A stretch of 64,000 nucleotides of DNA. Origin: Lysobacterales bacterium. Its GTDB lineage: Bacteria; Pseudomonadota; Gammaproteobacteria; Xanthomonadales; SZUA-5. Positions 13,898 to 61,142 of the stretch are shown piece after piece. A model generated the notes under the pieces. It was not told the origin of the DNA. It did no database searches and saw nothing but the letters and a program-made list of their open reading frames with translations. The stretch lies in the NCBI GenBank assembly GCA_050250665.1, contig JBFWOF010000007.1, positions 32,112-96,111 of the forward strand, read 5' to 3'. A program made the translations under genes and the position numbers. Within the stretch, counting starts at the first letter, position 1. The number at the start of each line of letters is the position of its first letter.

Positions 13898-14433
13898 GCA
13901 AACTCGATTACCAGACGGCGCTGGAACGCGCCGATCTGTTGCACGACCGGCCCGCGCTGGAAGCGGCGCTGGACCGCATGGCGGCTGAAATCAGCGAACG
14001 CCTGAAGGGTCAGCGCCCGATCTATGTCACCGTATTGACCGGTGGGCTGATCACGGCCGGCATGTTGGCGCCGCGGGTGGATGTCGATCTGGATTTCGAC
14101 TATGTCCACGTCACCCGCTACCACGGCGAGACCAAGGGTGGTGAACTGCACTGGAAGGCACGCCCGCGCTACGATTTCGCCGGCCGTCCTGTGATTTTCG
14201 TCGACGATATCCTCGATGAAGGCCACACCCTGGATGCGCTGAAGAAGCATGCTCTCGCGGCCGGCGCGACCGCCGTCTACATCGCCGTGCTGGTCAAGAA
14301 GGAGCACGATCGCTGCGTGCCCGGCGTCGTGGCCGATTTTGTCGGCCTGACGGTGCCCGATCGCTATGTCTTCGGCTTCGGCATGGACTTCGAAGAGCAC
14401 GGACGCAGCCTGTTCGGAATCTACGCCATATGA
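13894..14433 (+). CDS. hypoxanthine/guanine-type phosphoribosyltransferase
   Basis: PRPP-binding motif VIFVDDILDEGHTL; 179 aa; ATGA-type overlap with nagZ. Confidence 0.8.
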   Translation: MSKLDYQTALERADLLHDRPALEAALDRMAAEISERLKGQRPIYVTVLTGGLITAGMLAPRVDVDLDFDYVHVTRYHGETKGGELHWKARPRYDFAGRPVIFVDDILDEGHTLDALKKHALAAGATAVYIAVLVKKEHDRCVPGVVADFVGLTVPDRYVFGFGMDFEEHGRSLFGIYAI

Positions 14434-15179
14434 GCCGAGCCGATACCGGAATCATTGGTGGCACCGGTTTCGGCCGTCTGGCCGAGTTGCAGTCGGCCCA
14501 GGCGCTGAATCTGGACACTGCCTATGGCCAGCCTTCGAGCCCGGTGCTGGTCGGTAGCATGGCCGGCGTGCCGGTGGCCTTTCTGGCGCGTCATGGCACG
14601 CCGCACCGGATTGCGCCGCATCGGGTCAACTACGCGGCCAATATTGCGGCGCTGAAGGCGGTCGGAGTCAGGCGGATCATCGCCATCAATGCGGTGGGCG
14701 GCATCGCCGAGTGGGCGGGACCTGGCGTGCTGGCGCTGCCGGACCAGCTCATCGACTACAGCCATGGTCGCATCAGCAGTTTCAGTGATGTCGAGGGGCA
14801 GGCGGTAGAGCACATCGATTTCACCGACCCCTTCAGTCAGACGCTGCGGCTGAAGTTGCTGGAAGCGGGGCGATGCGCGGCGATCGATCTGCACGATGGT
14901 GGCGTGCTGGCCGTGACCCAGGGGCCGCGCCTGGAAACCCGTGCCGAAATCGTGCGTCTGGCGCGGGATGGCTGTGATCTGGTCGGCATGACCTCGATGC
15001 CCGAGGCTGCGCTCGCCCGCGAGGCCGGCATCGACTACGCCGCCATCGCCGTGGTCGCCAATGCGGCTGCCGGCTGCGGTGGCAGCGAAGTCATCGGCAT
15101 GCACGAGATCGAGCAGACGCTGGCGGAGGCCATGCATCGGGTGTTGAGGCTGGTGAATGCGCTGTTGCCGAGCCTGTAG
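14430..15179 (+). CDS. S-methyl-5'-thioadenosine/thioinosine phosphorylase
   Basis: GIIGGTGF N-terminus, FLARHG, MTSMPEA; overlaps the upstream stop. Confidence 0.85.
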   Translation: MSRADTGIIGGTGFGRLAELQSAQALNLDTAYGQPSSPVLVGSMAGVPVAFLARHGTPHRIAPHRVNYAANIAALKAVGVRRIIAINAVGGIAEWAGPGVLALPDQLIDYSHGRISSFSDVEGQAVEHIDFTDPFSQTLRLKLLEAGRCAAIDLHDGGVLAVTQGPRLETRAEIVRLARDGCDLVGMTSMPEAALAREAGIDYAAIAVVANAAAGCGGSEVIGMHEIEQTLAEAMHRVLRLVNALLPSL

Positions 15180-29821: not shown

Positions 29822-32600
29822 ACGCGGATTCAGGCTGCCCCTGGCTGCTCGTATCTTCTTTGCGAGCGGCTTCATGGTGGCTCTTGCCGTGGCGCTGGCG
29901 GCGCTGGTGACGCTGCAGTATGGCCGTCGCGCGGGAGAGGACGCGGTTGACCACAGTCTGGAAGCGGCCAACAACGCCCAGGAACGGTTCGAGGCGCTGT
30001 CCTTCCAGAAGCTCGACATCGTGGCCAAGACGATCATCAACGATGCCAGCTTCGTGCGCTATGTGGCGACCGCCACGGTGGGCAGCAGCGGCCTGAACGA
30101 GCTCGGCATCGCCTCACCGCCGGACGTGCCAGTGGCGGCGGCGACCGAGCCCGATGAATCAGGGAGTTCCGAGCAATCCGCCAGTCTGCCAGCCCCGGAG
30201 CCGGATGCCGACAGCGCTTCGGTCAAGGATCTGCTGACTCAGTTTGGCGAAAGTTACGACTTCAGCTTCGGGATGGTGCTGGATGCTGACGGTCGGGTGG
30301 TCGCCCGCACGGACGAACGCGAGGCCTTCGCCGATGATCTTTCCGACGATCCCATGTTCGGCAACATGATCAAGGACATCGTCGGAGTGACCGGATACTG
30401 GCGCAATGGCCTGGCTTTGCTGCAGGTGTCGGCGCAGCCAATGGTGATGCAGGATGAACTGGTCGGATTTCTGGTCATCGGCGTGCCGGTGGATGCCGGC
30501 GTGGTCAAGCAGGTGCGCGAAGTCAGCGGTGGCGAAGTCGCCTTCTGGGTCATGGATCAGGACAAGCTGCGCCTGATAGCCACGTCGGTGGATGAATCTG
30601 CTGCGGCTCTGCTGAAGGAATCGATCTCCAGGATCGAACCCAATCTGCTCGAAAGTCTGCAGGCCGGCCGCTCGCTGGCGCGGGTGCGTGATCTCTCTCT
30701 GGGGAGCACCACCCTGGCAGCCAGTCTGGCGCCGCTGTTCGGTCAGCCTGGGGACGCCGTGGGTGGCGTGATCACCATGACCTCCATCGACACGGCCATG
30801 GCGCCTTTCCAGTCCATCCGCAACGCCGTGCTGCTGGGTGGACTGATCGCGCTGCTGTTGTCGCTGGCGGTGTCCTGGTGGCTGGCTCGCAGGGTGTTGC
30901 GGCCGGTCTCCGAATTGATTGAGGCCGCTGAACAGGCGGCTGGCGGCAACTATCACCAGCAGTTGACCATCGAAGGCAATGACGAAGTGGCCAGACTCGG
31001 ACGGGCCTTCGACTCGCTGCTCAGCGATCTGCGTGAGAAGAAGGACATCGAAGGATACGTCGGCCATCTGTCGCGTTTCCTGCCCGATCCAGGTTCCGAG
31101 GCGCAGCTTTTGCCGGCGGCGCCGGCGCCCAAACCAGTCACCAGACGCGAATGCGCACTGGTGGGTCTGGAGCTTCGACGTTTCCTGCGCGCGCCACCCA
31201 AGGGTGAGGAAGCGATCACCTTGACCGCGCTCGGTCAGTTGATCGAAGAAGCGGTTGCCCGTGCCCAGGCCGCTGGTGGCGAGCTGCTGGAGCAGGAAGG
31301 TCCCAGACTGCTGTTCGGATTCGGTGGTGAGTCGTCCGAACTGCGGGCGCTGGCGGCGGTCAGCGCCTGGTGGGAAGGACGCATCGGTACCAGCGACAAT
31401 GGCGCGGCGGTGGCGCTGGCACTGGGCGAGATCGTGCACGGATCGTTGCCGGCTCGGCCGGAATCAAGCGCCACCATCGGCTTGCCGGTGCTGCAGGTCG
31501 AGCGTCTGCTGGCGGAGACGCCGGTGGGTCAGATGCTGCTGTCGCCGGCCTTCGGCGAGCGCATCAAGAGCATCGGTCAGACCGGCGTGTTGCGCGCCGC
31601 GCAGGGGCAGAGCAGCGGCAAGCGCTTCCTGTCGATCGATCGTCCCAGTCTGAGCGCAGTGGCGCGGCTGGCTCCTGGCCTGTCCCAGGCCACGGTGATG
31701 ATGGGGGCAGAGGGTGCCGCTACCCAGGTCGCCGGTGCTGCTGCTCCGGCAGCATCCGACCAGGCTTCGACCCGGCTGGCGCTGGGGATGCGCTTCGCCG
31801 GTCGTTACGAGATTCTGGCGATACTCGGCGCCGGTGGCATGGGCATGGTCTACAAGGCGCGCGACACCGACCTGTCCGATGTGGTGGCGCTGAAGATGCT
31901 GCGCCCGGGGATGGTCATCGATGCCGAGCAACTGGAGGGACTCAAGGTCGAGCTCAAGCTGGCGCGCAAGATCACCCACCCCAATGTGCTGCGCACCTAC
32001 GATTTCGGCGAATTCCAGGGCGTACCCTACATTTCGATGGAATATGTGCGCGGCCTGACCCTGCGTTACCTGCTGCAGCAGGCCGGCAGATTGCCGTTCT
32101 CGGCAGCCTTGCGGATCGCCCGGCAGCTGTGCATGGGCCTGGATGCCGCGCATCAGATGGGCGTGATCCATCGCGACATCAAGCCGGAGAACATCATCAT
32201 CGAGCAGAGCGGCAACGCCAAGCTGATGGACTTCGGCATCGCCCGCTCTGCCGGACGCTCGGATTCCAGGCATACCCAGCCGGGTACCTTCCTGGGTACG
32301 CCCAACTATGCCTCGCCCGAACAGCTCTCGGGTTCGGATCTGGATCAACGTACCGACATCTATTCCACCGGCGTCATGTTGTGCGAAATGTTCTGCGGCA
32401 AGTTGCCCTTCACCGGTAGCAATACCATGGAACTCTATGTAGCCCATCTGCAACAGGCACCGATCAAGCCCTCCGAGTTGTGGCCCGATATTCCGCGGGC
32501 TCTGGAAGAGGTCATTCTCAAATGCCTGGAGAAAAAGCCCGATGATCGATACGCTTCGTCGGCGGATCTGCTGGTGGCGTTGTCCGGACTGCGGGCCTGA
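29811..32600 (+). CDS. transmembrane sensor Ser/Thr protein kinase (periplasmic sensor, HAMP, degenerate cyclase-homology-like domain, STK)
   Basis: TM helix, ~300-aa periplasmic region, second TM, HAMP (LRPVSELIEAAEQAAGGNYHQQL...DEVARLGRAFDSL). A CHD-like stretch lacks the metal Asp (ALVGLELRRF). Kinase motifs GAGGMGMVYKA, VALK, HRDIKPEN, DFGIAR are present. Confidence 0.85.
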   Translation: MSTERGFRLPLAARIFFASGFMVALAVALAALVTLQYGRRAGEDAVDHSLEAANNAQERFEALSFQKLDIVAKTIINDASFVRYVATATVGSSGLNELGIASPPDVPVAAATEPDESGSSEQSASLPAPEPDADSASVKDLLTQFGESYDFSFGMVLDADGRVVARTDEREAFADDLSDDPMFGNMIKDIVGVTGYWRNGLALLQVSAQPMVMQDELVGFLVIGVPVDAGVVKQVREVSGGEVAFWVMDQDKLRLIATSVDESAAALLKESISRIEPNLLESLQAGRSLARVRDLSLGSTTLAASLAPLFGQPGDAVGGVITMTSIDTAMAPFQSIRNAVLLGGLIALLLSLAVSWWLARRVLRPVSELIEAAEQAAGGNYHQQLTIEGNDEVARLGRAFDSLLSDLREKKDIEGYVGHLSRFLPDPGSEAQLLPAAPAPKPVTRRECALVGLELRRFLRAPPKGEEAITLTALGQLIEEAVARAQAAGGELLEQEGPRLLFGFGGESSELRALAAVSAWWEGRIGTSDNGAAVALALGEIVHGSLPARPESSATIGLPVLQVERLLAETPVGQMLLSPAFGERIKSIGQTGVLRAAQGQSSGKRFLSIDRPSLSAVARLAPGLSQATVMMGAEGAATQVAGAAAPAASDQASTRLALGMRFAGRYEILAILGAGGMGMVYKARDTDLSDVVALKMLRPGMVIDAEQLEGLKVELKLARKITHPNVLRTYDFGEFQGVPYISMEYVRGLTLRYLLQQAGRLPFSAALRIARQLCMGLDAAHQMGVIHRDIKPENIIIEQSGNAKLMDFGIARSAGRSDSRHTQPGTFLGTPNYASPEQLSGSDLDQRTDIYSTGVMLCEMFCGKLPFTGSNTMELYVAHLQQAPIKPSELWPDIPRALEEVILKCLEKKPDDRYASSADLLVALSGLRA

Positions 32601-37683: not shown

Positions 37684-38235
37684 GGCGTCATTGCGAGCGT
37701 AGCGAAGCAATCCAGTTGTAGGTCACGTTGCTCGCGTAGCGAGCTACGTGACGAAACTCGATGTCACGTAGTCCGCTAACGCGGACAACATGACCTACGA
37801 CGGCGAGTGACGTCCGCATGAGCACAGCGCCGGCTTCGTCCACCTGTAGGAGCGCCCTTGCGGCGCGACCGGGGGTGATGTCCCGCGGCGTCGCCGGTCG
37901 CGCCGTGAAGGCGCTCCTACGAGGAACGCCGTCTGTTGTAGGAGCGCCCTTGCGTCGCGACCACTGCTGCGGACGTGCGACTTGCCGGTCGCGACGCGAG
38001 GTCGCTCCTACAGGCACCTTGCGGTTCATGGTCCGTGGGCTGTTTCGGTCCGACACAGGTGGCTCTCCATGAACCCATGTCGTAACGTGTTGATTTCTGG
38101 TCGATGGTGTAGGTTGGGCTAAGCGCAGCGTGCCCAACACCAGCGTCCATTGTTGGGCACGCTGCGCTTTGCCCAACCTACAGTTCATGGCGCTTGGGCA
38201 GCTTTGGGCCGAAACAGGTGGCTCGCAATGACGCC
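37684..38235. repeat. composite cluster of REP-like elements (at least three families)
   Basis: Family 1 pairs at 37846-37920 and 37938-38011. GTAGGTTGGGC...GCCCAACCTAC palindrome at 38109-38181. A GTCATTGCGAGC-type motif at both ends forms a perfect 15-bp inverted repeat (37684-37698 / 38221-38235). A ~45-bp direct repeat starts at about 38024 and 38184. Confidence 0.8.
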
Positions 38236-48513: not shown

Positions 48514-49980
48514 ATGCGACTGCGAGTATGGCAACGTCTGTTCCTGGTGCTGACGGCGCTGGTGCTCGGCAGCCAGCTGCTGACCCTGTGGGCGCAGCAG
48601 CGCGTGTTCGGCCATGGGCTGCTCGATTACGTCAATGGTCTGGACCGGAGCCGGGCCGAGGCCGTGGTCGAGCAGCTCTCGGCTCTGTACCTGCGCGAGG
48701 GCGGCTTCGAATCGCTCGCAAGCACCCAGGGACGCTTTCGGCGTCTGGTACTGCGCGCCGCAGCGGGTAGTGGGGCGGAAGGCGAGGCCCCGGTCGAAGC
48801 GCCGGCGCGACAACGCGAAGGCCGCGGACCGCCGCGTGCCCAGCGTTCTCCAGGCGCCGGGCAAACCCGACCGCCACCGCCCAAGTCTGGCGCCATTGAT
48901 TTCTTTGCCCGGCTCAAACTGCAGGATGTGCAGGGCCGGGACATCGCCGGAAATCTGCGCCTTTCAGACGGACAGGCCATCGCCATCGAAGCCGATGGTG
49001 CCGTGGTCGGACAGCTGGTGCTGGCCGCATTGCCGCAGCTCAACGACGCCGCCGATCTGGCCTTTGCCCAGCAGCAGACCCAGGCCATGACGCTGACGGC
49101 CATCGGCGTTCTGGCGCTGGCCCTGCCGCTGTCGCTGCTGCTGGCGCGGCAGTTCACGCGTCCGCTGCGATCGGTGGTCAGGGCCGCACATGCGTTGGCT
49201 GCCGGCAATGACGCGCCGCCGGTCGAGGTGCGCGGGCGCGACGAGCTGGCCGAGCTTGCGCAGGACTTCAACCGGCTGTCTGAACTCCACGCGCGTAACC
49301 GCCATCTGCGGCAGCAGTGGATGGCCGATGTCTCGCATGAGCTGCGCACGCCGCTGACGGTCATCCGTGGCGAACTTGAAGCATTGACCTGCGGCGTGCG
49401 CGTGCCAGATGCGGATGCGCTGCGCTCGCTGAGCGCCGAGGCGGAGCAGCTGTCCGCATTGATCGATGATCTGTTCCAGCTCAGCCTGGCCGATCTCGGC
49501 GCGCTGGAATATCGCTTCGAGATTGTCGACCTGCGTGAACTGCTGGGCGATGCCGTGGCCGCGCACCAGCGTGCCTGCGCTGAAGCCGGGCTTGCGCTGT
49601 CCTTGGATCCGGGCTCGGAACCGCTGCCGGTGCGCGCCGATCCCCGGCGCTTGCGCCAGCTCTGCGACAACCTGCTGGTCAATGCCCGCCGCTACAGCGA
49701 TCGCGGCGGCCGCGTCGAAGTGCACAGCGGTCGCGAGGGCCGCTGGGCCAGGCTGCGTATCGACGACACGCCGCCGGGCGTGGACCCGCAGCAGCTCGAA
49801 CAGCTGTTCGAGCGCTTCTTCCGGGTCGAGCGTTCGCGCAGCCGCGCCGGTGGTGGCGCCGGGCTGGGACTGGCCATCTGCAAAGCCATCGCCGAAGCCC
49901 ACGGCGCGCGCATCGAAGCCTCCGCCTCGCCGCTGGGCGGATTGCGGGTTGATCTGACCATTCCGCTGGAAACAGCCTGA
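48514..49980 (+). CDS. baeS: sensor histidine kinase, BaeS-like
   Basis: Two TM segments, HAMP, H-box MADVSHELRTPLT, N/G boxes (NARRYS, GGGAGLGLAICK). Start at ATG 48514. Confidence 0.8.
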   Translation: MRLRVWQRLFLVLTALVLGSQLLTLWAQQRVFGHGLLDYVNGLDRSRAEAVVEQLSALYLREGGFESLASTQGRFRRLVLRAAAGSGAEGEAPVEAPARQREGRGPPRAQRSPGAGQTRPPPPKSGAIDFFARLKLQDVQGRDIAGNLRLSDGQAIAIEADGAVVGQLVLAALPQLNDAADLAFAQQQTQAMTLTAIGVLALALPLSLLLARQFTRPLRSVVRAAHALAAGNDAPPVEVRGRDELAELAQDFNRLSELHARNRHLRQQWMADVSHELRTPLTVIRGELEALTCGVRVPDADALRSLSAEAEQLSALIDDLFQLSLADLGALEYRFEIVDLRELLGDAVAAHQRACAEAGLALSLDPGSEPLPVRADPRRLRQLCDNLLVNARRYSDRGGRVEVHSGREGRWARLRIDDTPPGVDPQQLEQLFERFFRVERSRSRAGGGAGLGLAICKAIAEAHGARIEASASPLGGLRVDLTIPLETA

Positions 49981-50669
49981 TGAACAGTGCACACATCCTG
50001 ATCGTCGAAGACGAAGCCAAGATCGCCTCGCTGTTGCGCGATTTTCTGAGTAGCGAGGGTCATCGCATCAGTGTGCTCGGCGAAGGTACCGAGGTCATTG
50101 CCTGGATTCGCGCGCAGAATCCCGATCTGGTGCTGCTCGACCTGATGCTGCCGGGGCGCGATGGCCTGTCGATCTGCCGCGAACTGCGGAGCTTTTCCAC
50201 GGTGCCGGTGATCATGCTCACCGCCCGCGTCGAGGAGATCGACCGCCTGCTGGGGCTGGATCTGGGCGCCGACGACTACATCTGCAAGCCCTTCAGCCTG
50301 CGCGAGGTGGTTGCCCGCGTCCGCGGCCTGCTGCGCCGGGCGTCACCGGGATCGACCAGCGAGTTCATGCTCGATCCCGTGCGCTTCGAGGCCCGTTTCC
50401 GCGGCCAGCAGCTGGCCCTGACCGTCGCCGAATTCCGCCTGTTGAACGCGCTGGTATCGCAGCCGGGCCGGGTCTATGGCCGAGCCCAACTGCTGGATCT
50501 GCTGTACCTCGATCACCGCGTGGTCACCGATCGTTCGGTGGATACCCACGTGAAGAATCTGCGCCGCAAGCTGCAGGAAGTCGCACCGGAAGCCGACCCG
50601 ATACAGACCGTTTATGGCGCCGGCTACAAGTACGCGGTCCAGGTGCCGGGTAGCAGCGATCGCGGCTGA
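49980..50669 (+). CDS. baeR: OmpR-family response regulator, BaeR-like
   Basis: ILIVEDE, DLVLLDLMLPGRDG, EEIDRLLGLDLGADDYICKPFSLREVVARV, RVVTDRSVDTHVKNLRRKL closely track E. coli BaeR (from memory). Confidence 0.85.
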   Translation: MNSAHILIVEDEAKIASLLRDFLSSEGHRISVLGEGTEVIAWIRAQNPDLVLLDLMLPGRDGLSICRELRSFSTVPVIMLTARVEEIDRLLGLDLGADDYICKPFSLREVVARVRGLLRRASPGSTSEFMLDPVRFEARFRGQQLALTVAEFRLLNALVSQPGRVYGRAQLLDLLYLDHRVVTDRSVDTHVKNLRRKLQEVAPEADPIQTVYGAGYKYAVQVPGSSDRG

Positions 50670-50950
50670 AGCCGCTCCCACAGTTGTGGTGTGTCCGCGG
50701 CTCTCAGGCCAGCGTACTCCGCCGCCCTGTGGGAGCGGACTCTGTCCGCGATCGGGGTGTCTGCGAGCAGCGCAGCTGTCAGTTCGACCCTTCGCGTCAA
50801 CGTGACTTAGCTCCTGCCGGGAAAAGAGGGGCAGGGGGCAAGGGGCAGGGGACCACCCCGCCGCACGGTCAGATCGTGTAGCGAGCTTGGGCCCCTGCCA
50901 CTCGCCTCCTGTTTGTTGCGCGAAAAAGCGCACCGCCAGGGGCGACCGAG
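50642..50950. repeat. direct repeat copy A (REP family 2 derived), interrupted by a 95-bp insertion at 50816-50910
   Basis: 50642-50815 and 50911-50950 align by eye with 58507-58720. Contains CGCGGCTGAAGCCGCTCCCACA / TGTGGGAGCGGACTCTGTCCGCG inverted arms and a GTCA..ACGTGAC hairpin. Confidence 0.85.
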
Positions 50951-50962
50951 TCTCGGTCGACC

Positions 50963-51034
50963 CTGCGCGCAGAGACCGACGAACTCCGCACGCGGCTCGA
51001 TCGTATCGAGCCGTTGCTGGGGGCGAAGGACTGA
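50963..51034 (+). pseudogene. remnant 3' end of a tail-fibre-like (S74 chaperone) gene
   Basis: Translates LRAETDELRTRLDRIEPLLGAKD*, versus the intact gene end MRAENAALRARLDRIEQLLGAKD* at 53127-53198. An in-frame stop lies at 50879-50881 with no homologous coding between it and the remnant. Confidence 0.7.
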
Positions 51035-51121
51035 TCAAGACGTTGCGCCATAGCTCCAGTCTTGTCGCGTTTTGCGGTCGGCTCCGTAGATGTAGATATG
51101 TCCTCAAGAGCGACGCCAGAC

Positions 51122-51385
51122 ATGCGCCTTCATCTCACACCCTTGATCCTGCTGTTGGGTCTCGCCGCGCCAGCGGCGGCCGAGTCGAATGGCGATTCGT
51201 TTCGCGCCACCGCGACCATTGAAAAGCGCCAGGTCAGCGAGGACGGCCGTTACGCCGTGGTGGGCCAGGCCCTGCGCAAGCAGGAAACGGGCTCTGCCGA
51301 CGGGCGCTATGTACTCAAGACCACCGCCGCGACCTGCAACCCCGGCGCCGACAGCCTGTTCCGCAACGGCTTTGAAAACCCCTGA
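51122..51385 (+). CDS. small secreted hypothetical protein
   Basis: Signal peptide (LILLLGLAAPAAAE), 87 aa, internal DGRYAV/DGRYVL repeat, C-terminal LFRNGFENP. Confidence 0.5.
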   Translation: MRLHLTPLILLLGLAAPAAAESNGDSFRATATIEKRQVSEDGRYAVVGQALRKQETGSADGRYVLKTTAATCNPGADSLFRNGFENP

Positions 51386-51401
51386 TTTCCTGGAGATTCC
51401 C

Positions 51402-53198
51402 ATGCGCCTGACTCTGCTTACGCTCGCCATCGCCGGCCTGCTCGTCACCTTGCCCGCTAGCGCCGACACGCTGACCTACAGCGGCTATCTCGAATCCGGC
51501 AATGCACCCGCCAATGGTCACTTTGACCTGCGTCTGGTCACGCATGGCGACGCCAAGTTCGGCGCGCCGCTGGCGGCGCCGATCGAGTTCCCTGCGGTCG
51601 CGGTGACCGACGGCGCCTTCCGCGTCGAGTTCGAGATGCCGGCTGGCCGCGATGAGGCCTGGGTGGAACTGGCGGTGCGCGCCGCAGGCGAATCCGTCTG
51701 GAGCACGATCCCGGGGCGTACCAAGGCAAGTTCCGCACCCAGCGCGATCGGCCAGTGCTGGAGCAGCACCGGCGATGACGGCAGCAACCCGGCATTGAAC
51801 TTTCTGGGCACCACCGATGCACAGCCGCTGGTGCTGCGCACGCGCAATGTGCAGAGCCTGCGGTTGGAGCCGAGCTCGATTTTGTTCAACGGCGCACCCA
51901 TTACGGCGAACGTCATCGCGGGGTCGAGCGCGAACAGCGTTACCGCAGGCGTACGTGGCGCCACGATTGCGGGAGGTGGCTTGCCCAGCGGCAACAGCGA
52001 TCCTGACTTTGACGATGAAGCACCCAATCGCGTGACCGATGCCTACGGCACGGTCGGTGGTGGTTATGGCAACCGGGCCGGAGATAACGCGGGATCTGCA
52101 ACGGATGCAGGCCATGCCACGGTTGCCGGCGGCACCAGGAACATCGCGACGGGGCTTGGCAGTGCCATCGCAGGAGGCTCAACGAACACGGCGAGTGCAG
52201 TCGGCAGCAGCGTGGGCGGTGGCGGCGGGAACCTTGCAAGCGGTAATTACGGGGTTGTCGCAGGGGGCGCCCTGAATTCAGCCACCGGCGCCGGGAGCAC
52301 GGTCAGCGGCGGCATTTCCAACTGTGCCGGTGGTGTCGGCTCGTGGGCGGGTGGCAACCGAGCCAAGGTGCGGCCTGGCAGCGAATCAGGCTTAGGCGGC
52401 AATGCCTGTGCAGTTGAGCTATCGCCGGACGCACTGGGCGATCACGGTACGTTTGTCTGGTCCGACAGTGGATTCGGCGGCGGCGGCAGCCCATTTGTTT
52501 CCACCGGCCCCAACCAATTCCTCGTCCGCGCCCAGGGCGGCATGGCGATCAACACCAACACCCCGACTGCCGGTGCCGCGCTCACGGTGAACGGCAATGT
52601 CGCTGTTGCCACCACCGGCTCGCTCAGCTTCGGCTCGCAAACCCGGCAGATGCTCAACCTCTGGGGCCCGGCCGGCTACGGCATTGGCGTGCAGAGCGAT
52701 CGTCTCTACTTCCGCAGCTTCAGCGGCTTCAGCTGGTTCCAGGGCGGCGCGCACAACGATGCGGCCGACAACGCCGGCACCGGCGGCACGCTGCGCATGC
52801 GCCTGTCCAATACCGGCCAGCTGCAAACCACCACCGGCACCATCAGCACGCTGTCCGACGCGCGTTTGAAGGATCAGATCGCGGACTACTCCGGCGCACT
52901 GGATCGCATCAACGCGCTGCGCCCCGTGAGCTATCACTACCGCAACGCCGGCAAGGCCGCCTTCCAACCCGAGGGCACGCATTTGGGATTCATCGCCCAG
53001 GAAATGCAGCAGGTCTTTCCGCAGTGGGTCAGCGAGGGCGACGACGGCCACTTGATGCTGTCGATGCGCGGCTTCGAGGCCGTCGCCGTCAGGGCGATGC
53101 AGGAGCTGAGTGCGGAGAACGACGCGATGCGGGCCGAGAACGCCGCGCTCCGCGCGCGGCTGGATCGCATCGAGCAGTTGTTGGGAGCGAAGGACTGA
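51402..53198 (+). CDS. secreted tail-fibre-like protein with C-terminal S74-type intramolecular chaperone domain
   Basis: ATG 51402 preceded by GGAGA. Signal peptide. Gly-rich GG..N.A.G..S.V.GG head-like repeats. C-terminal SDARLKDQI ... LGFIAQEMQQVFPQWV ... coiled-coil tail. Confidence 0.8.
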   Translation: MRLTLLTLAIAGLLVTLPASADTLTYSGYLESGNAPANGHFDLRLVTHGDAKFGAPLAAPIEFPAVAVTDGAFRVEFEMPAGRDEAWVELAVRAAGESVWSTIPGRTKASSAPSAIGQCWSSTGDDGSNPALNFLGTTDAQPLVLRTRNVQSLRLEPSSILFNGAPITANVIAGSSANSVTAGVRGATIAGGGLPSGNSDPDFDDEAPNRVTDAYGTVGGGYGNRAGDNAGSATDAGHATVAGGTRNIATGLGSAIAGGSTNTASAVGSSVGGGGGNLASGNYGVVAGGALNSATGAGSTVSGGISNCAGGVGSWAGGNRAKVRPGSESGLGGNACAVELSPDALGDHGTFVWSDSGFGGGGSPFVSTGPNQFLVRAQGGMAINTNTPTAGAALTVNGNVAVATTGSLSFGSQTRQMLNLWGPAGYGIGVQSDRLYFRSFSGFSWFQGGAHNDAADNAGTGGTLRMRLSNTGQLQTTTGTISTLSDARLKDQIADYSGALDRINALRPVSYHYRNAGKAAFQPEGTHLGFIAQEMQQVFPQWVSEGDDGHLMLSMRGFEAVAVRAMQELSAENDAMRAENAALRARLDRIEQLLGAKD

Positions 53199-53286
53199 AT
53201 TCAGCGATTGCCCACAGCGCCAGTTTTGTCGCGATTGGCGCTCGGAGTCGTAACTGACAATAAGCCCCCAAGGAACGAGCCACCTC

Positions 53287-54705
53287 ATGAGACCAACAAC
53301 GATCCCTCTTGCCGCGATGCCGAGCCTTGCCTTGCCACTTGCGACTGAATCGAATGCCGTCAAGCGACGCGGATTGCTCAGCCTTGGCGTCGCAGCATTG
53401 ATCGCCAGCGCCAGGTGCGCGGCGGAACCGATAGACCTGGATGTCGGGTTTGGCTTGAACGGCACAGTCTACGCACCGAACGATGCCCCGGGCTCGAACA
53501 ACCGGGACCGCACGGTCGCGGTCTTCCCGATCAGTTTTGACGACTACATCGTCGTCGCCGAAACCGCGAACGCATCCGGTGGCGTGAGCCCCACGTTCGT
53601 CCGTGTGACACCGACCGGTGTCCAATCGCGCAATACCGTCAACCTCAATGTCGTGGGTGTCACCGCTGCTTGCCGGGATCCGGCCAGTGGTGGATTCGTG
53701 CTTGGCATGCGCACGACTTCGTCCCAGGGCAACGCCATCGAATTCCGCAAATACAGCGCTGTGGGCACCCAGGACATGGCGTTCGGCGCGAGCGACGGTC
53801 GTTTTGCCTACGGCTCTGGTCTCTTTGAACGGGCGGCCGAAATGACCTGCCACGACGGTAGATTCTCGGCTGCGATGTGGCTCGGAACTACTGACGGCGA
53901 CTGGACCGGATATCGAATCGTGCAGGGTCCGCTGTCCGGTGGCTCCTTGGGAAACGGCAGACTGATGCTCCCTTCCAATACGCGCACGACCCGAACCTTG
54001 GGCAGCGGTGGCAGGGACGACGGTAAAGTGGTTTTCGTCAACGAACTCGATCAGGAAAACCAGCCCCTGTCCGTAGAGGTGCTGCAATTTGCGACCACGC
54101 AATTGAACCCGCAGCCGAGCATTGCCACCATCGCGATCGGCCAACACTGCGCGCTGGGCAGTACAAGTACCGTCGACAAGGCCCACGTCGATGGTTTGGG
54201 GCGAGTGCATGTTGCAGGCTCATCAACGATCGGCGCCACCCTCATTTCCAGCGGCAGGAAATTCAACTGGCTGATGCAGTTCAACCTAACGGACTCTGGC
54301 ACGATTGTTGCGGTTCGCTGTGGCACCCGCACGTTTGCGACGTTCAGCTTCGGTGCGATTCCGCCTGTGACGACAAACACCGCAGAAGCCTTCGAATTAA
54401 CGGGCCAGTCCATCTACTTGCTCACCACGCTGGCGACCGGCAACCTGACCCCCGACACGTCGACTCCGCAGCTTCTGCGCTTCCGGACCGCCGATTTGGT
54501 TTCTGACCTTTCCTATCTGCCAACCCTCATCACCGCCCCCGGCAACACGACACCGATGCATCGCGGCCGCAGCTTGTTATTTGATACGCGCCCCGCAGAT
54601 TCAAGGCTGCTGATCGCCGGCAACCGAGAATTTCAGGGCACCGACGAGGATCCGTTCGTGGTGCGCATGATCACTGCGCCGCTGTTTGCGAACGGCTTCG
54701 AATAA
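53287..54705 (+). CDS. secreted hypothetical protein, possibly beta-propeller (delta-60-repeat-like)
   Basis: N-terminal KRRGLLSLGVAALIASA (Tat-like or Sec signal). LDVGFGLNGTV- and QDMAFGASDGRF-type repeats. C-terminal LFANGFE. Confidence 0.45.
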   Translation: MRPTTIPLAAMPSLALPLATESNAVKRRGLLSLGVAALIASARCAAEPIDLDVGFGLNGTVYAPNDAPGSNNRDRTVAVFPISFDDYIVVAETANASGGVSPTFVRVTPTGVQSRNTVNLNVVGVTAACRDPASGGFVLGMRTTSSQGNAIEFRKYSAVGTQDMAFGASDGRFAYGSGLFERAAEMTCHDGRFSAAMWLGTTDGDWTGYRIVQGPLSGGSLGNGRLMLPSNTRTTRTLGSGGRDDGKVVFVNELDQENQPLSVEVLQFATTQLNPQPSIATIAIGQHCALGSTSTVDKAHVDGLGRVHVAGSSTIGATLISSGRKFNWLMQFNLTDSGTIVAVRCGTRTFATFSFGAIPPVTTNTAEAFELTGQSIYLLTTLATGNLTPDTSTPQLLRFRTADLVSDLSYLPTLITAPGNTTPMHRGRSLLFDTRPADSRLLIAGNREFQGTDEDPFVVRMITAPLFANGFE

Positions 54706-54759
54706 GCGCGTCCAGACGCGGACGTCAGTGGCGCATCAACTGTGCGGCCTGTGCTGAAC

Positions 54760-55302
54760 TCAAACGTTGAGCAGGAAGGCCCGCGCCGTGCGCCACTGCC
54801 GTTGCACCGTGCGCAGCGATACTCCCTGCAAGGCCGCGACCTCGTCGAGGTCGAGGCCGGAGAACACGCGCAGCGCGACCAGTTCGGCGAGTTCCGGGTC
54901 GTCGCGTTCGAGCGTGCGCATCGCCGCATCCCAGTCGACCAGTTCGGTCCAGTCCTGCGGCGCGACCGGCTCTCCGCCGATTTCCGGCATGCCATCGACG
55001 TACAGGCGGATACGTTCCAGCTCGGCTGCACGCGAACGCTGGCGGTCGATCCAGATCTGCTTCATCGCCGCGGCGGCGATGCGAAAGAAATGCACGCGAT
55101 CTTCGGCCTGAACCACGCTGCCGGCCAGCTTGAGCCAGGTTTCATTGACCAGCATGGTCGGCGACAGCGTGGCGCGCGAGTCGGCAGCGAGTCGCCGAGC
55201 GGCCAGACCGCGCAACTCCAGTTGGATGGCCCCGAACGCGGCATCGAAGGCAACCCGGTCACCTTCGGCGGCGCGGTGGATGAGTTGAGTGATCTGAGTC
55301 AT
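54760..55302 (-). CDS. ECF sigma factor of the Ser/Thr-kinase-associated type
   Basis: ITQLIHRAAEGDRVAFDAAF ... LSPTMLVNETWLKL ... LRTVQRQWRTARAFL. Pattern of the ECF subgroup usually paired with an STK. Confidence 0.85.
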   Translation of the reverse strand: MTQITQLIHRAAEGDRVAFDAAFGAIQLELRGLAARRLAADSRATLSPTMLVNETWLKLAGSVVQAEDRVHFFRIAAAAMKQIWIDRQRSRAAELERIRLYVDGMPEIGGEPVAPQDWTELVDWDAAMRTLERDDPELAELVALRVFSGLDLDEVAALQGVSLRTVQRQWRTARAFLLNV

Positions 55303-55341
55303 CGGATGGGGGCGCTGGAACCTCGGTTGAACGCACTTCGA

Positions 55342-55504
55342 CTAGTGTGGTGTCCCAAAAGTAATTCCACTAATTTCCGATGGATGTGGTCGCGAGGCAA
55401 GGCGCGAGAAGGAAGCTGTAGCAGCGCTACAGCGACGCCGCGCAACGCAGCATCGGGGCCACAGACGCGGAGATTAGTGAAGGACTGCTGGGACACCACA
55501 CTAG
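55342..55504. repeat. perfect 16-bp inverted repeat (CTAGTGTGGTGTCCCA / TGGGACACCACACTAG) enclosing 131 bp
   Basis: Read directly at 55342-55357 and 55489-55504. The interior is locally AT-richer and contains a CTGTAGCAGCGCTACAG hairpin. Confidence 0.7.
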
Positions 55505-55620
55505 CTTAGCAGGCTGTCGAAACGAGCCTGTAGAGGTGACCAGGAGGCAGCGCAACATCACAGGTTTAGGCAACGCCCGGCGGCTTGCTGAATCCCTGAG
55601 CGCGCGGCTAGTCTTCGGCG

Positions 55621-58462
55621 ATGCACAACCCGCTGCGCGAGCGCTGGCCCGAGGTGAAGGCGCTGTTCGAAGCAGCGTCGATGCAGCCCCGCGCCGAGCG
55701 TTCGGCATGGTTGGCGACTCAGCCAGCCGACGCCGCGTTGCGCGCCGCGGTGGTCGCGATGCTGGCCGACGCCGACTCCGATACCGTCGGCGCCGAAGCA
55801 CGCGATTTGGAACCAGAGTCTGCCGAGGGTCAGTACATCGGGCGCTACCGGATCCTGCGCACCTTGGGCCGCGGTGGCATGGGTGTGGTCTATCTCGCCG
55901 AACAGGCAAATCCGCAGCGCCTGAATGCTGGCCCGGTTGTCACACCCGGGGATCGCGCACATCGTCGAAGTCGATGCGGATGCCGACGAACGTCCCTTCC
56001 TGGTGATGGAGTACGTCGACGGCATTGATCTCACCGATCATTGCGCCAGACTTTCGCGCGATCAGCGATTGGCATTGCTGGCGCAGGTCGCCGATGCCGT
56101 CGAGCACGCGCACGCCCGGGGTGTGGTGCATCGCGATCTCAAACCGTCGAATATTCTGATCGACGCCGAGGGCCATCCCAAAGTGCTCGACTTCGGCATC
56201 GGGCAAATCATGGGGGAGGGGCACACCCTGACCGAGACCGGGATGCTGCTCGGCACGCCGGCCTACATGAGCCCGGAACAAGCCATTGGCAGCTCACGGC
56301 CGGATGCGCGCAGCGATGTCTACGCGCTCGGCGTGATGGCCTACGAGTTGATGACCGACCGCTTGCCGCTGCCGGTCGCTGGACTGACTCCGCTGGAGGC
56401 GCTGCGACAGGTAGGCGAGGTCACGCCGCCGCCGATGTCGCGACTCGATCGGACTTTGCGCGGCGATCTGGAGGTGATCGTCGAGACCGCGCTGGCAAAG
56501 ATTCCTCAGCAGCGTTACGCCAGTGCCGGGTTGTTCGCCGACGATCTGCGGCGCTATCTGGCAGCCGAGCCGATCCGCGCGCGGCGACCGCCGTGGTGGC
56601 GCCGCGCGGTGTTGTTGGCGCGGCGCAAACCGGCACTGGTGGCGGCGCTCGCCATGGCGCTGGGTGGCTTGCTGATCGGCAGCGGGCTGGCTCTGGCATT
56701 TGCAATCGGCGCCGCGCGCGATCGCGACCGCGCCGAGGCTGCGCTGGCGCAGGCTCGCGGCACCCAGGAGGCACTGGCCCGGGTGTTTGCGGCCGGCAAT
56801 CCGGTGATTGCGGGCAAACCGGAGGTTGCGTTCCGGGAGGTGCTGAGCGCCGCGCCATCGCAGCTGGCCGGCATGCCGCCGCAGATCCGCTTGCCGGTGC
56901 AGTACACGGTGGCGCTGGCGCAGACGCAGATTGGCGACGATCAGGCGGCGATCGCCGGCTTCGCGGCGGCAGCGGAGATTGCCGCCGAACTTGGGCTTGG
57001 GCGGGCACGCGCACAGGCCGAGCTGCGCCGCCTCATGGTCGCGTTCGATCATGTGGATATCGCCGAGTCGGCGCGTGCGGTCGAAGCGCTGCTGGCTGAC
57101 CCGCACGTGCTCGCCGATCCGCTGCTGCACGCCGGGTCGCTGATCAACGCTTCGGGGATCGCGCTGGCCCAGTTCCGCGATCAAACCGCTGCCGCGCGGC
57201 TCGCCGCCGCGCTTGCGCTGTGGCCGCGGGTGACCGCGATGACGCCGGCGATCGACGACGCCACGCTGGATGCCGAAGTCGAGATCGGCCTGCTTCAGTT
57301 GCAACTCATTGCGATGGCGACGGGTGGCGCTGGCCCGGATGCACCGCGCCGTCTGGCGGCAGAGGCCAGCGAGGCCTACGCGCGGCTGTCCCTGCGCCTG
57401 CCCGCCGATCACCCGGTTCTGGCGGCGCTGCGCGTTGTTGCGCAAAACCTGGCCGATGCCCTTGCTGGCCGCTCGGAGTGGCGGACCAGGCTGCACGCGA
57501 CGATCGACGCGCAGATCCCGCGGCTTGGATACGCGCATCCCACCATCGCAGCGCAGATCACGACGGGTCTGCAACTGGCGGGCTTGCAGGGGTTGATCGA
57601 TCCGCCGCTGCAGCAGCAACTGGTCGAGGTGGCGCGGGCAATGCCACCCGGCAGCCGGCGAAGGCTGCGGCTGATGTTGCAGGCGGCGGCGGAGAGTGGC
57701 TTCCCCGCGCGTGTCGGCGTCACTGCTGATGAGATCGCTGCAGCCCGAGCGACCATCTGTGAGGCCGCACGCGGGATCGACCAGGACTGTATCTGGGCCG
57801 AAGTCGGCATCGCACAACTGGAGTTCAACGAGGGGCGCGCCGCGGCCGCGCACGCGCGGCTCGACGCGCTGTACCAACGTCGCTCTGAACTTCCGGCGCC
57901 GCTGGCGCTGCGCGTTTACATGATCGCGGCGTCACTGAACCAGTGGGACGGCCGCTACGATCAGGCGGTTGCGGCTGCTGAGGCCGCGCTCGCTGCGGCA
58001 CTGGCGGACACCGACCTCACTGACGAAAGCCGCGACAGGACGTTGTTGGCGTTGAGCTGGAGTTTCCGGCCCCAACGCTGTGACCGCGTGATCGAGGTGA
58101 TCGGGCCGATCGAGTCAAGACTCACGTCCAATCCCGGCGTTTCTGGCGACGTGCTGGCGCGCCTGCTGTCGACCTGCGAGGTGCGCGCCGGGCGCGATGT
58201 GGACAGCGCGCTCGCCCGCCTCGCGCCTTGGTGGCAGCGCCTGCAGGACCCGGCAGTCGACCCGATGATTCGATTGGACGTGATTTCGGCCCACCTCGAG
58301 ATTTTCGACGTGCTCGGGCGCGACGCCGATTTCGCGCAATGGGCGCGTGAGCTTGCCGCGCTGGAAGCGGCCGGTCTCGATCTCGACAAGTTGGCCACGC
58401 GGATGCCCTGGATCGCGCGGGCACGAGCGATGACGCGTGGCGTGGGCGCGCCATCGCACTGA
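55621..58462 (+). pseudogene. Ser/Thr protein kinase with TPR-like C-terminal region, disrupted by internal deletion/frameshift
   Basis: Frame 1 (55621-56028) gives the N-terminal region and Gly loop GRGGMGVVYLAEQANPQR, then nonsense. Frame 2 (55925-58462) resumes at MLARLSHPGIAHIV ... HRDLKPSN ... DFGIGQ. The VAxK/alpha-C segment between them is missing. Confidence 0.7.
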
Positions 58463-58506
58463 AGCTTCCTCGCGCGGTCGAGGCCTGCAGCATCCGCGAC
58501 CATGCG

Positions 58507-58720
58507 GGTGCCCGGCACAGCAGTCGCGGCTGAAGCCGCTCCCACAGTTGTGGTGTGTCCGGGACTCTCAGGCCAGCGTACTCCGCCGCCCTGTGGGAGC
58601 GGACTCTGTCCGCGATCCGGGTGCCTGCGAGCTGCGCAGCTGTCACGTAGACCCTTCGGGTCAACGTGACCTACCTCCACGGTTTGATGCGCGAACAAGC
58701 GCACCGCCAGGGGCGACCGG
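58507..58720. repeat. direct repeat copy B (REP family 2 derived)
   Basis: Aligns with 50642-50815 plus 50911-50950; most positions identical by eye. Confidence 0.85.
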
Positions 58721-58813
58721 GACTCCCACCATTCTCGCGCACTCGGACCCTTGGGCCCGTGCTTGCATCATCGATCGCTAGCTGTGCATACTGTGCATAC
58801 CAAATAGACACAG

Positions 58814-59224
58814 ATGATCGTGGACGCAAAACTCTTTCTCTCCGCCAGCAGTGGCGCGCCCATGTACCAGCAGGTGATCGACCAGATCACCATGAAGGTC
58901 ATGGCCGGCGACTGGCCGGCGGGGACCGCACTGCCATCGATACGTGAACTGGCCAGCCAGAGTCAGGTCAGCGTGATCACGGTCAAGCGGGCCTACCAGG
59001 AACTGGAGCGATCTGGGGTCATCGTGACGCGCCAGGGCAAAGGTTCATTTGTCGCCGACTCTCCGGACATGCAGCGGGCCCTGTTGCACGCCGAATTTGC
59101 CGAACACCTGCGCGCCCTGCTGCTGACGGCAGCGAAGCTGGGTCTGGGCATCGAAGACATCAAACAACTGCTCGACGAGTCCGCAACCGTCGATACCAAC
59201 GCAACATCTGAGGAAACGCCATGA
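58814..59224 (+). CDS. GntR-family regulator, YtrA-like short type
   Basis: PMYQQVIDQI ... LPSIRELASQSQVSVITVKRAYQELERSGVIVTRQGKGSFV winged HTH; short effector region. Confidence 0.85.
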   Translation: MIVDAKLFLSASSGAPMYQQVIDQITMKVMAGDWPAGTALPSIRELASQSQVSVITVKRAYQELERSGVIVTRQGKGSFVADSPDMQRALLHAEFAEHLRALLLTAAKLGLGIEDIKQLLDESATVDTNATSEETP

Positions 59225-60105
59225 GCAACGCCTTCTCGGTCTCCGGCATCAGCAAGCGCTATCCGCATTTCGCGCTGGAGGACATTGATCTCAGCCTGCC
59301 TGAGGGCCAGATCATGGGTCTGGTGGGCGTCAATGGAGCCGGCAAGACCACCTTGCTGCGGATTCTGACCGGGCTGGCCCAGCCCGATCGTGGGCAGGTC
59401 GAAGTGCTGGGCTATGCCATGCCCGCGCAACAGGTGGCGGCCAAGCGCGAGATCGGCTTTGCCTCCGAGGACATGCGCCTGTACAAGGGCCGCAGCCTGC
59501 GCTGGCACATGGATCTGGTCGCCGCCATCTATCCCGGCTGGGATGAGAGCTACGCCGCCGAGCTGCTGCGGCGCTTTGATCTGCGTCCCGAACAGCTGAT
59601 GGCGGGTCTTTCCCATGGCCAGCGTGTAAAGTCGCTATTGCTGCTGTGTCTGGCCAGACACCCGAGGCTGCTGCTGCTGGACGAGCCGACCACGGGACTG
59701 GATCCGGTTGCACGCGCGGAAGTGCTGGATGCGCTCGCCGATGTGCTGCGCGACGAGGCCCGCAGCGTGCTGTTTTCCTCGCACAACACCCATGACATCG
59801 AGCAGCTGGCCGACAGCATCACCTTCCTTCACCAGGGTCGAATCATTGCCTCAGAAGACAAGGAGCATTTCCTGGACAGCTGGCGGCGCATGGTGTGTCA
59901 GACCGACGCCCACTTTGATCAGCAGGAGTTTCCGGAAGTGGCCAGCTTGCGCCGCAACGGATCGATGCTGGAGCTCAAGATCAAGGGATTCAGCGAAGAG
60001 CTGGCGCCGCGTCTGGAAGCGCGCGGACTGGCCATCAAGAGCTCGCACGCCATGAGCCTGGAAGACATATTCGTGACCACCGTTCGCACCGGAGTTGCCG
60101 CATGA
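59221..60105 (+). CDS. ABC transporter ATP-binding protein
   Basis: Walker A GVNGAGKTT, signature LSHGQRVK, Walker B LLLLDEPTTGLD. ATGA overlap with the GntR gene. Confidence 0.9.
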   Translation: MSNAFSVSGISKRYPHFALEDIDLSLPEGQIMGLVGVNGAGKTTLLRILTGLAQPDRGQVEVLGYAMPAQQVAAKREIGFASEDMRLYKGRSLRWHMDLVAAIYPGWDESYAAELLRRFDLRPEQLMAGLSHGQRVKSLLLLCLARHPRLLLLDEPTTGLDPVARAEVLDALADVLRDEARSVLFSSHNTHDIEQLADSITFLHQGRIIASEDKEHFLDSWRRMVCQTDAHFDQQEFPEVASLRRNGSMLELKIKGFSEELAPRLEARGLAIKSSHAMSLEDIFVTTVRTGVAA

Positions 60106-60788: not shown

Positions 60789-60830
60789 GCACGCGCGCAG
60801 CGACGCGCACCCTCGGCCTTCGTTCGCTCT

Positions 60831-61076
60831 GTAGGAGCGCCCTTGCGGCGCGACCGTCGTGTGGCCGGTCCCGACACGAGGTCGCTACACGAGGTCGTTC
60901 ACTCCCAACGACCGACCCGAGTCGTAGGAGCGCCCTCGCGGCGCGACCGTTGACTAACAGGTCGCGACGCAAGGTCGCTACACGAGGTCGTTCCCACCCA
61001 ACGACCCACCCGAGTCGTAGGAGCGCCCTCGCGGCGCGACCGTGACTAACAGGTCGCGACGCAAGGTCGCTCCTAC
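60831..61076. repeat. tandem array (~2.6 copies of a ~93-bp unit) built on REP family 1
   Basis: Units start at 60831, 60924 and 61017. Each begins GTAGGAGCGCCCT(T/C)GCGGCGCGACC and ends ...GGTCGCTACACGAGGTCGTTC..CCCAACGACC.ACCCGAGTC. The last copy is truncated at ...GGTCGCTCCTAC. Confidence 0.9.
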
Positions 61077-61142
61077 TCAACGATGAGACTCGCCCGCTGG
61101 CATTGCCATGCCGGGCCGACCAGCACCCAGGATCCGCTGTCC

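Follow-up and report, generated by a model that had tools for sequence, protein, structure and literature searches.

A putative lineage-specific islet with a truncated S74 fibre locus, an ECF43-type sigma factor and a disrupted kinase gene in an uncultured Lysobacterales bacterium

To our knowledge, work on S74-matured fibres that do not belong to phages has mainly concerned Bdellovibrio, in which the fibres serve to recognise prey. In Bdellovibrio bacteriovorus, fibres of the S74 subgroup of the mosaic adhesive trimer (MAT) class are displayed on the cell surface, carry the motif SDxxxK and have tips that appear to be swapped between paralogues (PMC10769870). Sigma factors of the extracytoplasmic function (ECF) group ECF43 are inactive until a partner Hanks kinase phosphorylates a threonine, which lies in the motif STTA in EcfP and in QATE in EcfK (PMC8999054, PMC13147305). 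Here we analysed a stretch of 64 kb from an uncultured Lysobacterales bacterium (contig JBFWOF010000007.1), referred to below as the window, in which genes for a fibre of the S74 type, an ECF43-type sigma factor and a Hanks-type kinase lie between two copies of a direct repeat termed R.

Positions 50680-58760 of the window, including both copies of R, appear to form a lineage-specific islet in a variable gap between baeSR and gntR-ABC, and its cargo is best read as a 'fibre locus' of the kind conserved in the clade, here in a truncated copy (Table 1). The complete explanation, in which the islet carries the fibre cargo together with a broken regulatory switch and R represents an old duplication at its borders, is on balance probable. 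The loci used for comparison carry L-numbers; L002 belongs to GCA_022841325.1, and L093 and L094 are Logan contigs.

Table 1. Features of the islet and its flanks, with positions in the window.
Feature	Position	Strand	Basis or remark
baeR-like response regulator, left conserved flank	49980-50669	+	Pfam Response_reg and Trans_reg_C; best NCBIfam match is BaeR, under its cutoff
Left repeat R	50642-50954	+	REPIN-like inverted REP pair 50657-50754, extension to 50814, hairpin insert 50815-50910, 44-nt block 50911-50954
Fossil: 3' end (~23 codons plus stop) of a different S74 fibre gene	50961-51037	+	83% identical to 53128-53198
ECF-type promoter candidate P1	51063-51088	+	TGTCGC-N16-CGTA; ends 33 nt before the small-gene ATG
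Small secreted protein, 87 aa	51122-51385	+	Signal peptide; C-terminal LFRNGFENP tag
Secreted fibre protein, 598 aa	51402-53198	+	PF13884 Peptidase_S74
Second joint (S74 3' end, P2 and ATG)	53119-53290	+	67% identical over 172 columns to 50955-51125
ECF-type promoter candidate P2	53227-53252	+	TGTCGC-N16-CGTA; upstream of p472
p472, orphan secreted protein, 472 aa	53287-54705	+	Open reading frame; C-terminal LFANGFE tag
ECF43-type sigma factor, 180 aa	54760-55302	-	PF07638 E 4e-30; TIGR02999 141 bits against a cutoff of 126.15
MITE-like element, 163 nt	55342-55504	.	Perfect 16-nt terminal inverted repeats (CTAGTGTGGTGTCCCA)
Pseudogene of a transmembrane Hanks-type Ser/Thr kinase	55621-58462	+	Split into 55621-55923 and 55925-58462, in different frames
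Right repeat R	58507-58725	+	REPIN-like pair, extension, 44-nt block
GntR-family regulator, right conserved flank	58814-59224	+	Pfam GntR; opens the gntR-ABC-permease operon

The islet and its cargo in relatives

The borders of the islet were given by L093 and L094, in which BaeR is 88% identical to that of the window. Both loci retain the baeS-baeR and the gntR-ABC-permease neighbours with other genes in between, namely a 111-aa gene and a gene for a BNR/sortilin-like protein of 658 or 804 residues. Homology to the window ends at 50679 and restarts at 58761, and R is not there; the sequence from 50680 to 58760 was therefore taken to be lineage-specific. A comparison of the interval between baeR and the GntR gene in relatives had been proposed as a check in the original prediction, which was made from the sequence of the window alone, and the synteny break is indeed present. 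At the same site, L002 carries baeS, baeR, R, a fossil fibre-gene end, the small gene and the fibre gene, with flanks of 94% nucleotide identity to those of the window. Searches for protein families and tRNAs found no integrase gene, transposase gene or tRNA in the islet or its flanks, and the GC content at third and other codon positions resembles that of the flanks. Both results agree with the native GC and the lack of integrase, transposase or other phage genes noted at the outset. As a genomic island, the segment thus shows content polymorphism at a conserved site, together with native composition and neither an integrase or recombinase gene nor a tRNA target. Wider searches for the site added little: a BaeR scan of reference genome contigs was uninformative (best match just 63% identical, no baeR beside gntR), a search of metagenomes for the DUF1996 neighbour returned four short contigs of which none extends to baeR, and exact-protein look-ups of the BaeR and ABC proteins of the window gave no record.

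L001, L006 and L007 have retained as one block the module composed of the small gene, the fibre gene, p472, the ECF sigma factor gene and a gene for a 969-aa kinase. In L005 the module varies, in that its small-fibre pairs stand in tandem and there are two kinases, and a small-fibre pair occurs by itself in L003. In L001, L005, L006 and L007 the module adjoins genes for alpha/beta-hydrolase, VWA_CoxE and AAA_16 proteins, with rpoD upstream in L001. These four loci lie at a chromosomal site other than that of the window and R is absent from them; their homology spans positions 51055-58481 of the window and reaches 25 nt or less from R at each side. Two further differences in gene content were observed among them. 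In L001 the ECF and kinase genes are separated by an inserted nucleotidyltransferase/HepT toxin-antitoxin pair (14070-14650), and in L005 (14662-20892) the kinase gene is tandemly duplicated and a second small-fibre pair stands in place of p472.

The fibre protein scores 63.4 bits for the Peptidase_S74 family, whose cutoff is 22 (E 2.5e-17, residues 485-543). Its structure model, with a predicted local distance difference test (pLDDT) score of 77.7, begins with a signal peptide, followed by an Ig-like beta-sandwich (residues 23-111) that is conserved in the alignment of the fibre family, a neck with the phage-fibre-like motif NFLGTTD, a series of 14-residue repeats and an S74 domain that ends in a long helix. 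The repeats form a UspA1-like head (residues ~180-320) which was modelled at very high confidence and which matches the UspA1 head structure (PDB 3pr7) by profile search (E 1.8e-32), phmmer (E 7e-12) and Foldseek (E 4e-5). For the C-terminus, the PDB entries returned by profile search are S74 proteins, among them 8jov, a phage tail fibre, and 7dc3 (MYRF). The S74 intramolecular chaperone covers residues 485-598 with the motif SDARLK, in which S485, D486 and K490 are invariant in an alignment of 51 homologous sequences, and this invariance of the Ser/Lys dyad indicates that the chemistry of self-cleavage is retained. A 598-aa protein with a signal peptide, head-like repeats and an S74 domain had been proposed from the sequence alone, and these results bear out the proposal. 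No Pfam match to a YadA-type C-terminal membrane anchor was found, the C-terminus being made up of the S74 domain and the helix, so the protein is not a trimeric autotransporter.

More than 2,500 matches to the fibre family were obtained, several per contig and mostly from metagenome-assembled genomes (MAGs) of Xanthomonadales and Lysobacterales. In IMG/VR a single contig exceeds 40% identity over 320 residues and the remaining matches share the NFLGTTD neck only. The family is essentially chromosomal. Among the small protein, the fibre and p472, PHROG matches were found for the fibre only, all of them to tail families, and the sigma factor and the kinase gave just generic regulator and kinase matches.

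The small secreted partner gene lies directly upstream of the fibre gene in all eight fibre loci examined. Its product has no Pfam, NCBIfam or PHROG match, and the partner proteins all end in LF(R/G/A)(N/H)GFE followed by N, NP or TP. p472 is likewise without a match in Pfam, NCBIfam or PHROG, and its homologues are restricted to seven clusters, with ten representatives among 1.84 billion. A 71%-identical homologue was found in an Ahniella MAG just downstream of an ECF/kinase pair, with no fibre beside it. The model of p472 (pLDDT 42.7) indicates an all-beta protein and nothing more specific, such as the propeller-like fold first suggested, and being too poor for an assignment it was not used to name a fold. 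Of the two export routes first suggested for p472, Sec is more likely than twin-arginine translocation, since the twin-arginine is not conserved in the homologues.

The small protein (51359-51385) and p472 (54685-54705) share a C-terminal tag, [LIMV]F-x-(N/G/H)-G-F-E, which is followed by zero to two residues and the stop codon. The BNR/sortilin-like protein of L093 and L094 ends in the same LFxNGFE-type tag, as do large, unrelated proteins from Pseudomarimonas and from a Rhodanobacteraceae MAG (tag positions in relatives: L093 3179, L008 6323 and L010 3813). No hydrophobic segment follows the tag, which argues against a sortase-type signal. In the literature the FxNGFE tag yielded nothing but irrelevant text matches.

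Candidate promoters and the damaged switch

The sigma factor appears to carry the hallmark of ECF43, a threonine that replaces the acidic motif of sigma region 2.2. In the stretch LSPTMLVNETWLKL, SPTM (Thr50) stands in place of the acidic DAED motif of other ECF sigma factors. SPTM is kept in L001, L005 and L006, and the corresponding residues are TPTE in L141 and QPTA in L008; the comparison with the published motifs QTTA, STTA and QATE (PMC13147305, PMC8999054) was made by eye and without an alignment to those proteins.

A common candidate promoter precedes both the small-fibre operon and p472. The motif TGTCGC-N16-CGTA, which has the classic ECF layout, occurs exactly twice in the window when both strands are counted, and eight of the nine occurrences in the 2.2 Mb searched fall in modules of this kind. 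The P1 segment is conserved in every close copy, and no sigma-70-like promoter was found in the 8.5 kb. The common motif fits a control of the two units by the ECF sigma factor. A sigma-54 reading of the upstream motif was ruled out because the spacing of the GG and GC elements is wrong.

We infer a circuit in which the transmembrane kinase would sense an envelope or extracellular cue and phosphorylate the sigma factor, which in this state would associate with RNA polymerase and activate both promoters. The first unit would deliver the small protein and the fibre, both Sec-exported, and the second would deliver p472. Once exported, the fibre would trimerise on its S74 domain, cut this domain off at Ser485 and act as a surface or extracellular adhesin in the manner of the Bdellovibrio MAT fibres. 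The steps from the adjacency of the genes to a common regulon are the conjectural part of this scheme.

In the genome analysed here the switch seems to have been damaged twice, by a deletion in the kinase gene and by an insertion of a miniature inverted-repeat transposable element (MITE)-like sequence in the promoter region between the sigma and kinase genes. Relative to five orthologues, 68 nt are missing from the kinase gene at 55923/55926. The lost nucleotides encode VALKLLTGAGGAAALARFRREAE (VALK...RFRREAE), a stretch that holds both the catalytic lysine and the alpha-C glutamate, and the Pkinase match accordingly starts at profile position 51 in the window and at position 1 in the intact orthologue of L006. 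The orthologous loci carry an intact 969-aa kinase. Since the loss shifts the frame, the kinase gene is regarded as a pseudogene, and the loss is probably recent as the rest of the open reading frame is clean. The original list of five genes thus holds for the small secreted protein, the 598-aa and 472-aa proteins and the convergent sigma factor, but not for an intact Ser/Thr kinase. The MITE-like element sits in the divergent promoter region, which measures 94 nt in L006 and 318 nt in the window; no further copy was found in the window or in the comparison loci. With a broken kinase and this insertion the cargo is probably silent or decaying here, unless another kinase substitutes. A second Hanks-type kinase gene is present at 31968-32561, with 34% identity to the kinase domain of the pseudogene, and represents a possible source of cross-phosphorylation. 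Control of the fibre by the ECF/kinase pair, as first proposed, is therefore in keeping with the candidate promoters before both units but probably does not apply in this genome, where the kinase is inactivated.

Several observations weigh against this picture of the switch. Adjacency and motif architecture are what connects the sigma factor to the promoters, and neither the sigma nor the kinase gene is preceded by the motif TGTCGC-N16-CGTA. In addition, the sigma/kinase pair of L005 occurs without p472, and the lone small-fibre pair of L003 has a different upstream motif. The kinase deletion is known from one MAG assembly and could represent a minority variant or an assembly error.

A motif of the form GCGCCGGATT-N14-CGT(A/T) was observed in L141 (9940-9975 and 11441-11475) and in L003 (9655-9690). 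It precedes the Ahniella homologue of p472, the downstream neighbour of that gene and the small-fibre pair of L003; L141 and L003 have the form GCGCCGGATT-N14-CGTAT in common. As a second promoter motif it is too short to be specific and was retained as a hint only.

Joints, flanking repeats and the origin of the islet

The module appears to have its left breakpoint at the fossil that follows the left copy of R (74% identity over fibre residues 576-598 by tblastn). Next to this fossil comes the promoter segment, in an order collinear with the junction of the tandem pair in L005. The unit formed by an S74 3' end, a promoter and an ATG is present in two copies in the window, at 50955-51125 and 53119-53290. 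Comparison with L002 shows that the two sequences are mosaic. Identity is 90-100% in baeR, in R, in the small gene and at the two ends of the fibre gene, whereas the centre of the fibre gene with the head repeats (51850-52500 against 10450-11100 of L002) is hypervariable at 50-65% identity between flanks of 94-100%. From ~53100 on, relatedness to the window ceases in L002, in the last ~90 nt of the fibre gene as well as in all that lies downstream. The breakpoints that recur are therefore the joints of S74 3' end and promoter and the borders of the head region, and not R. Judging from these alignments, exchange has happened inside the islet, and the shuffling of cassettes in the fibre family would run via the conserved joint.

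Alignment of the two R copies gave 161 nt at 92% identity (50654-50814 against 58518-58678) and 44 nt at 91% (50911-50954 against 58682-58725). The sequence common to the two copies comprises ~205 nt in direct orientation, 92-94% identical and with identical runs of 53 and 38 nt; weaker similarity reaches back to ~50642 and 58507, on the left ~17 nt further into the coding end of baeR. The first ~100 nt of each copy consist of two inverted repetitive extragenic palindromic (REP) sequences (TCGCGGCTGAAGCCGCTCCCACAG ... CTGTGGGAGCGGACTCTGTCCGCGA) ~45 nt apart, which together form a long hairpin (folding z = -4.9) of the kind termed REPIN, and the stop codon of baeR falls within the first REP of the left copy. 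The two direct repeats with a further block of ~40 bp, and their derivation from REPs, had both been recognised in the original prediction and are upheld by these alignments. Only the left copy carries a G-rich hairpin of 81-96 nt (GGGGCAGGGGGCAAGGGGCAGGGG...CCCCTGCC) at 50815-50910, with TGCC on both sides, of which neither the right copy nor the orthologous left R of L002 has a counterpart.

The REP core of R, GTGGGAGCGG, has four matches in the window against 0.28 expected, all of them at the two R sites. Elsewhere the R variant was found once, in L002, and it was not seen in ~130 kb of loci from close relatives; in the JGI metagenomes an exact 26-mer of R had no match, and neither R nor the MITE-like element had a match in the plasmid database. 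An Rfam scan of 50000-59500 gave a sub-threshold miRNA-precursor on the REPIN hairpin as its sole match. The ~23-24-nt core of the REPs is identical to REPs in Pseudomonas. Directly 3' of Pseudomonas baeR orthologues (L024 9285-9335; L074 10683-10772) we also observed an inverted REP pair with a 23-nt core identical to that of the R REP.

REPs as a class are common in the window. The sequence GTRGGAGCG has 14 matches against 1.5 expected, distributed over six sites in the 64 kb. A second REP/REPIN family (GTAGGAGCGCCCTTGCGGCGCGACC...), with members at 10019-10092, 37846-38011 and in an array at 60831-61076, accounts for four sites besides R. The array itself (60831-61071) is a 93-nt tandem repeated 2.6 times between the ABC permease and acyltransferase genes, and the stretch that contains it, 60808-61115, has no counterpart in L093 and L094. 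The question raised at the outset, whether the repeats are ordinary REPs with more copies elsewhere, thus has a divided answer, as the R variant is confined to the two borders in the window and another REP family occupies four further sites.

On this evidence the edges of the islet are marked by two R copies that appear to be REPIN-based composite elements forming a specific pair. They are also old. The left and right copies share 94% identity, which equals the 94% between the flanks of the window and those of L002, so that the arrangement predates the split of these two lineages and was not recently active; no sign of current activity was seen. Two independent Logan assemblies of a close relative (L143 and L144) both end 77 nt past baeR, within the REP hairpin of R. 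Assembly ends at this position fit a repeat or a strong hairpin and do not decide among the possible origins of R.

Three origins of R were weighed, and a duplication of the spacer adjacent to baeR when the module joined in is considered the most likely of them, with moderate confidence. Two findings weigh against this origin and leave it weakly supported. No empty site with the order baeR-R-gntR was found, and the second-family REPINs at 9990-10160 and 37925-38090 have ~65 nt of sequence in common past the hairpin at ~85% identity, from which it follows that composite REP elements are ordinary in this genome.

This last finding leads to a serious rival, which we consider possible though rather doubtful, namely that the two R copies are independent insertions of a dispersed composite REP/REPIN element into the two newly formed spacers, unrelated to the arrival of the module, and that the module arrived in a variable gap by ordinary illegitimate or homology-assisted recombination. 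The abundance of the REP class, the extended second-family copies at 10 kb and 38 kb, the likewise lineage-specific array at 60831-61071 and the 24-nt core identical to Pseudomonas REPs all agree with it. However, a dispersed element is difficult to reconcile with an R variant that occurs at the two borders only in 64 kb and once in L002. The R copies are moreover 92-94% identical over ~205 nt as compared with ~85% in the other family, lie in direct orientation, and have a similarity that continues ~17 nt into the coding end of baeR, all of which speaks against independent insertions.

The third origin builds on the original suggestion that the repeats bound an exchangeable cassette. In this reading the cassette would be excised as a circle by recombination between the R copies and re-integrated in a Campbell-style event at another R, and it could move in this way between strains or paralogous loci. 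The direct repeats abut the module, their 53- and 38-nt stretches of perfect identity are long enough for RecA-dependent recombination, the module occupies different loci in different genomes with other cargo in the baeR-gntR gap of L093 and L094, and the two Logan assemblies break within R. We nevertheless judge this origin unlikely, and nothing shows exchange via R. The repeat is absent at all other locations of the module and at the borders of the alternative cargo, neither an empty site nor a match to the 26-mer in the JGI metagenomes was found, and the copies, at 6-8% divergence, are as old as the split of window and L002 and without a sign of conversion or recent exchange. L002 shares the left part of the islet and differs to the right of the fibre gene, which places the exchange inside the islet and not at R.

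Descent of the segment from a prophage or tailocin, now decayed and with the fibre as a leftover tail fibre, is very improbable and was rejected: the tail-fibre PHROG and solved phage tail fibre matches and the NFLGTTD neck common to many viral contigs would agree with it, but no other phage gene occurs in the islet, its flanks or the other locations of the module, all loci examined have housekeeping genes as neighbours, the fibre carries a Sec signal peptide and has several paralogues per chromosome in a family of more than 2,500 members, only one viral contig is related at more than 40% identity over 320 residues, and the composition is native.

Comparison with known systems

The analysis brings out a large uncharacterised family of S74 fibres in Lysobacterales and Xanthomonadales, and it provides three testable leads for one clade: a candidate regulator of the ECF43/Hanks type, the motif TGTCGC-N16-CGTA, and a recombination joint that could explain the diversification of the fibres. 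Within a limited coverage of the literature, we found no paper that links S74 fibres to ECF43/kinase pairs or that describes the Xanthomonadales fibre family. If the proposed link is true, secreted adhesins would be a new output of a type of signalling known so far for the type VI secretion system (T6SS) and polymyxin resistance, and it would amount to a phosphorylation-gated surface adhesion or prey/host recognition analogous to that of the Bdellovibrio MAT fibres. More broadly, and as a tentative proposal only, the Lysobacterales and Xanthomonadales may possess a large and diversifying repertoire of Sec-exported, S74-matured trimeric fibres with small partners, in which ECF43-type promoters and a Hanks-kinase switch provide the control, cassettes are shuffled at the joints and LFxNGFE serves as a lineage-specific sorting or docking signal. 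The link between fibre and regulator is of more importance than the REP-flanked cassette, which teaches that the borders of an island may bear direct REP-type repeats without these being the sites of exchange.

The R repeats resemble REPINs in having inverted REPs ~45 nt apart that form a long hairpin, in their intergenic position and in a core shared with Pseudomonas. They differ from REPINs in the larger repeated unit of ~205 nt, which adds ~105 nt to the REPIN, and two copies were seen in 64 kb. With the S74 fibres and spikes of phages, such as the K1F endosialidase and the T5 L-shaped fibre, the fibre protein shares the S74 Ser/Lys residues, the C-terminal helix and the matches to tail-fibre PHROGs, whereas the Sec signal peptide, the chromosomal non-phage context and a regulator of its own set it apart. 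The likeness to UspA1 of Moraxella catarrhalis (PDB 3pr7) lies in the GGxxNxAxGxxS repeats of 14-15 residues; the YadA-type membrane anchor is not found here, and trimerisation would presumably depend on the S74 chaperone that is cut off.

The regulatory genes correspond to the ECF43 pairs EcfK/PknS of Xanthomonas citri and EcfP/PknT of Vibrio parahaemolyticus. These pairs likewise have a sigma factor matching PF07638/TIGR02999 with a threonine that replaces the acidic motif of region 2.2, an adjacent transmembrane Hanks kinase and no anti-sigma factor. In contrast to the T6SS or polymyxin-resistance genes controlled by those pairs, the presumed regulon here consists of the fibre and p472 operons, and the kinase of this genome is a pseudogene.

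The closest functional analogue of the fibre would be the S74 subgroup of the Bdellovibrio MAT fibres. Both are chromosomal and not phage-borne and have many paralogues. Both combine a signal peptide and a beta-rich N-terminal domain, likened here by architecture only, with a trimeric fibre (predicted in our case) and a C-terminal S74 domain with SDxxxK, and in both the variable ligand-binding regions are apparently swapped between paralogues. The fibre described here differs from the MAT fibres in a shaft of UspA1/YadA-type head repeats where MAT fibres have a beta-helix, in the small secreted partner encoded upstream of each fibre gene, and in the linkage of its locus to an ECF43 sigma factor and a Hanks kinase in a Lysobacterales host.

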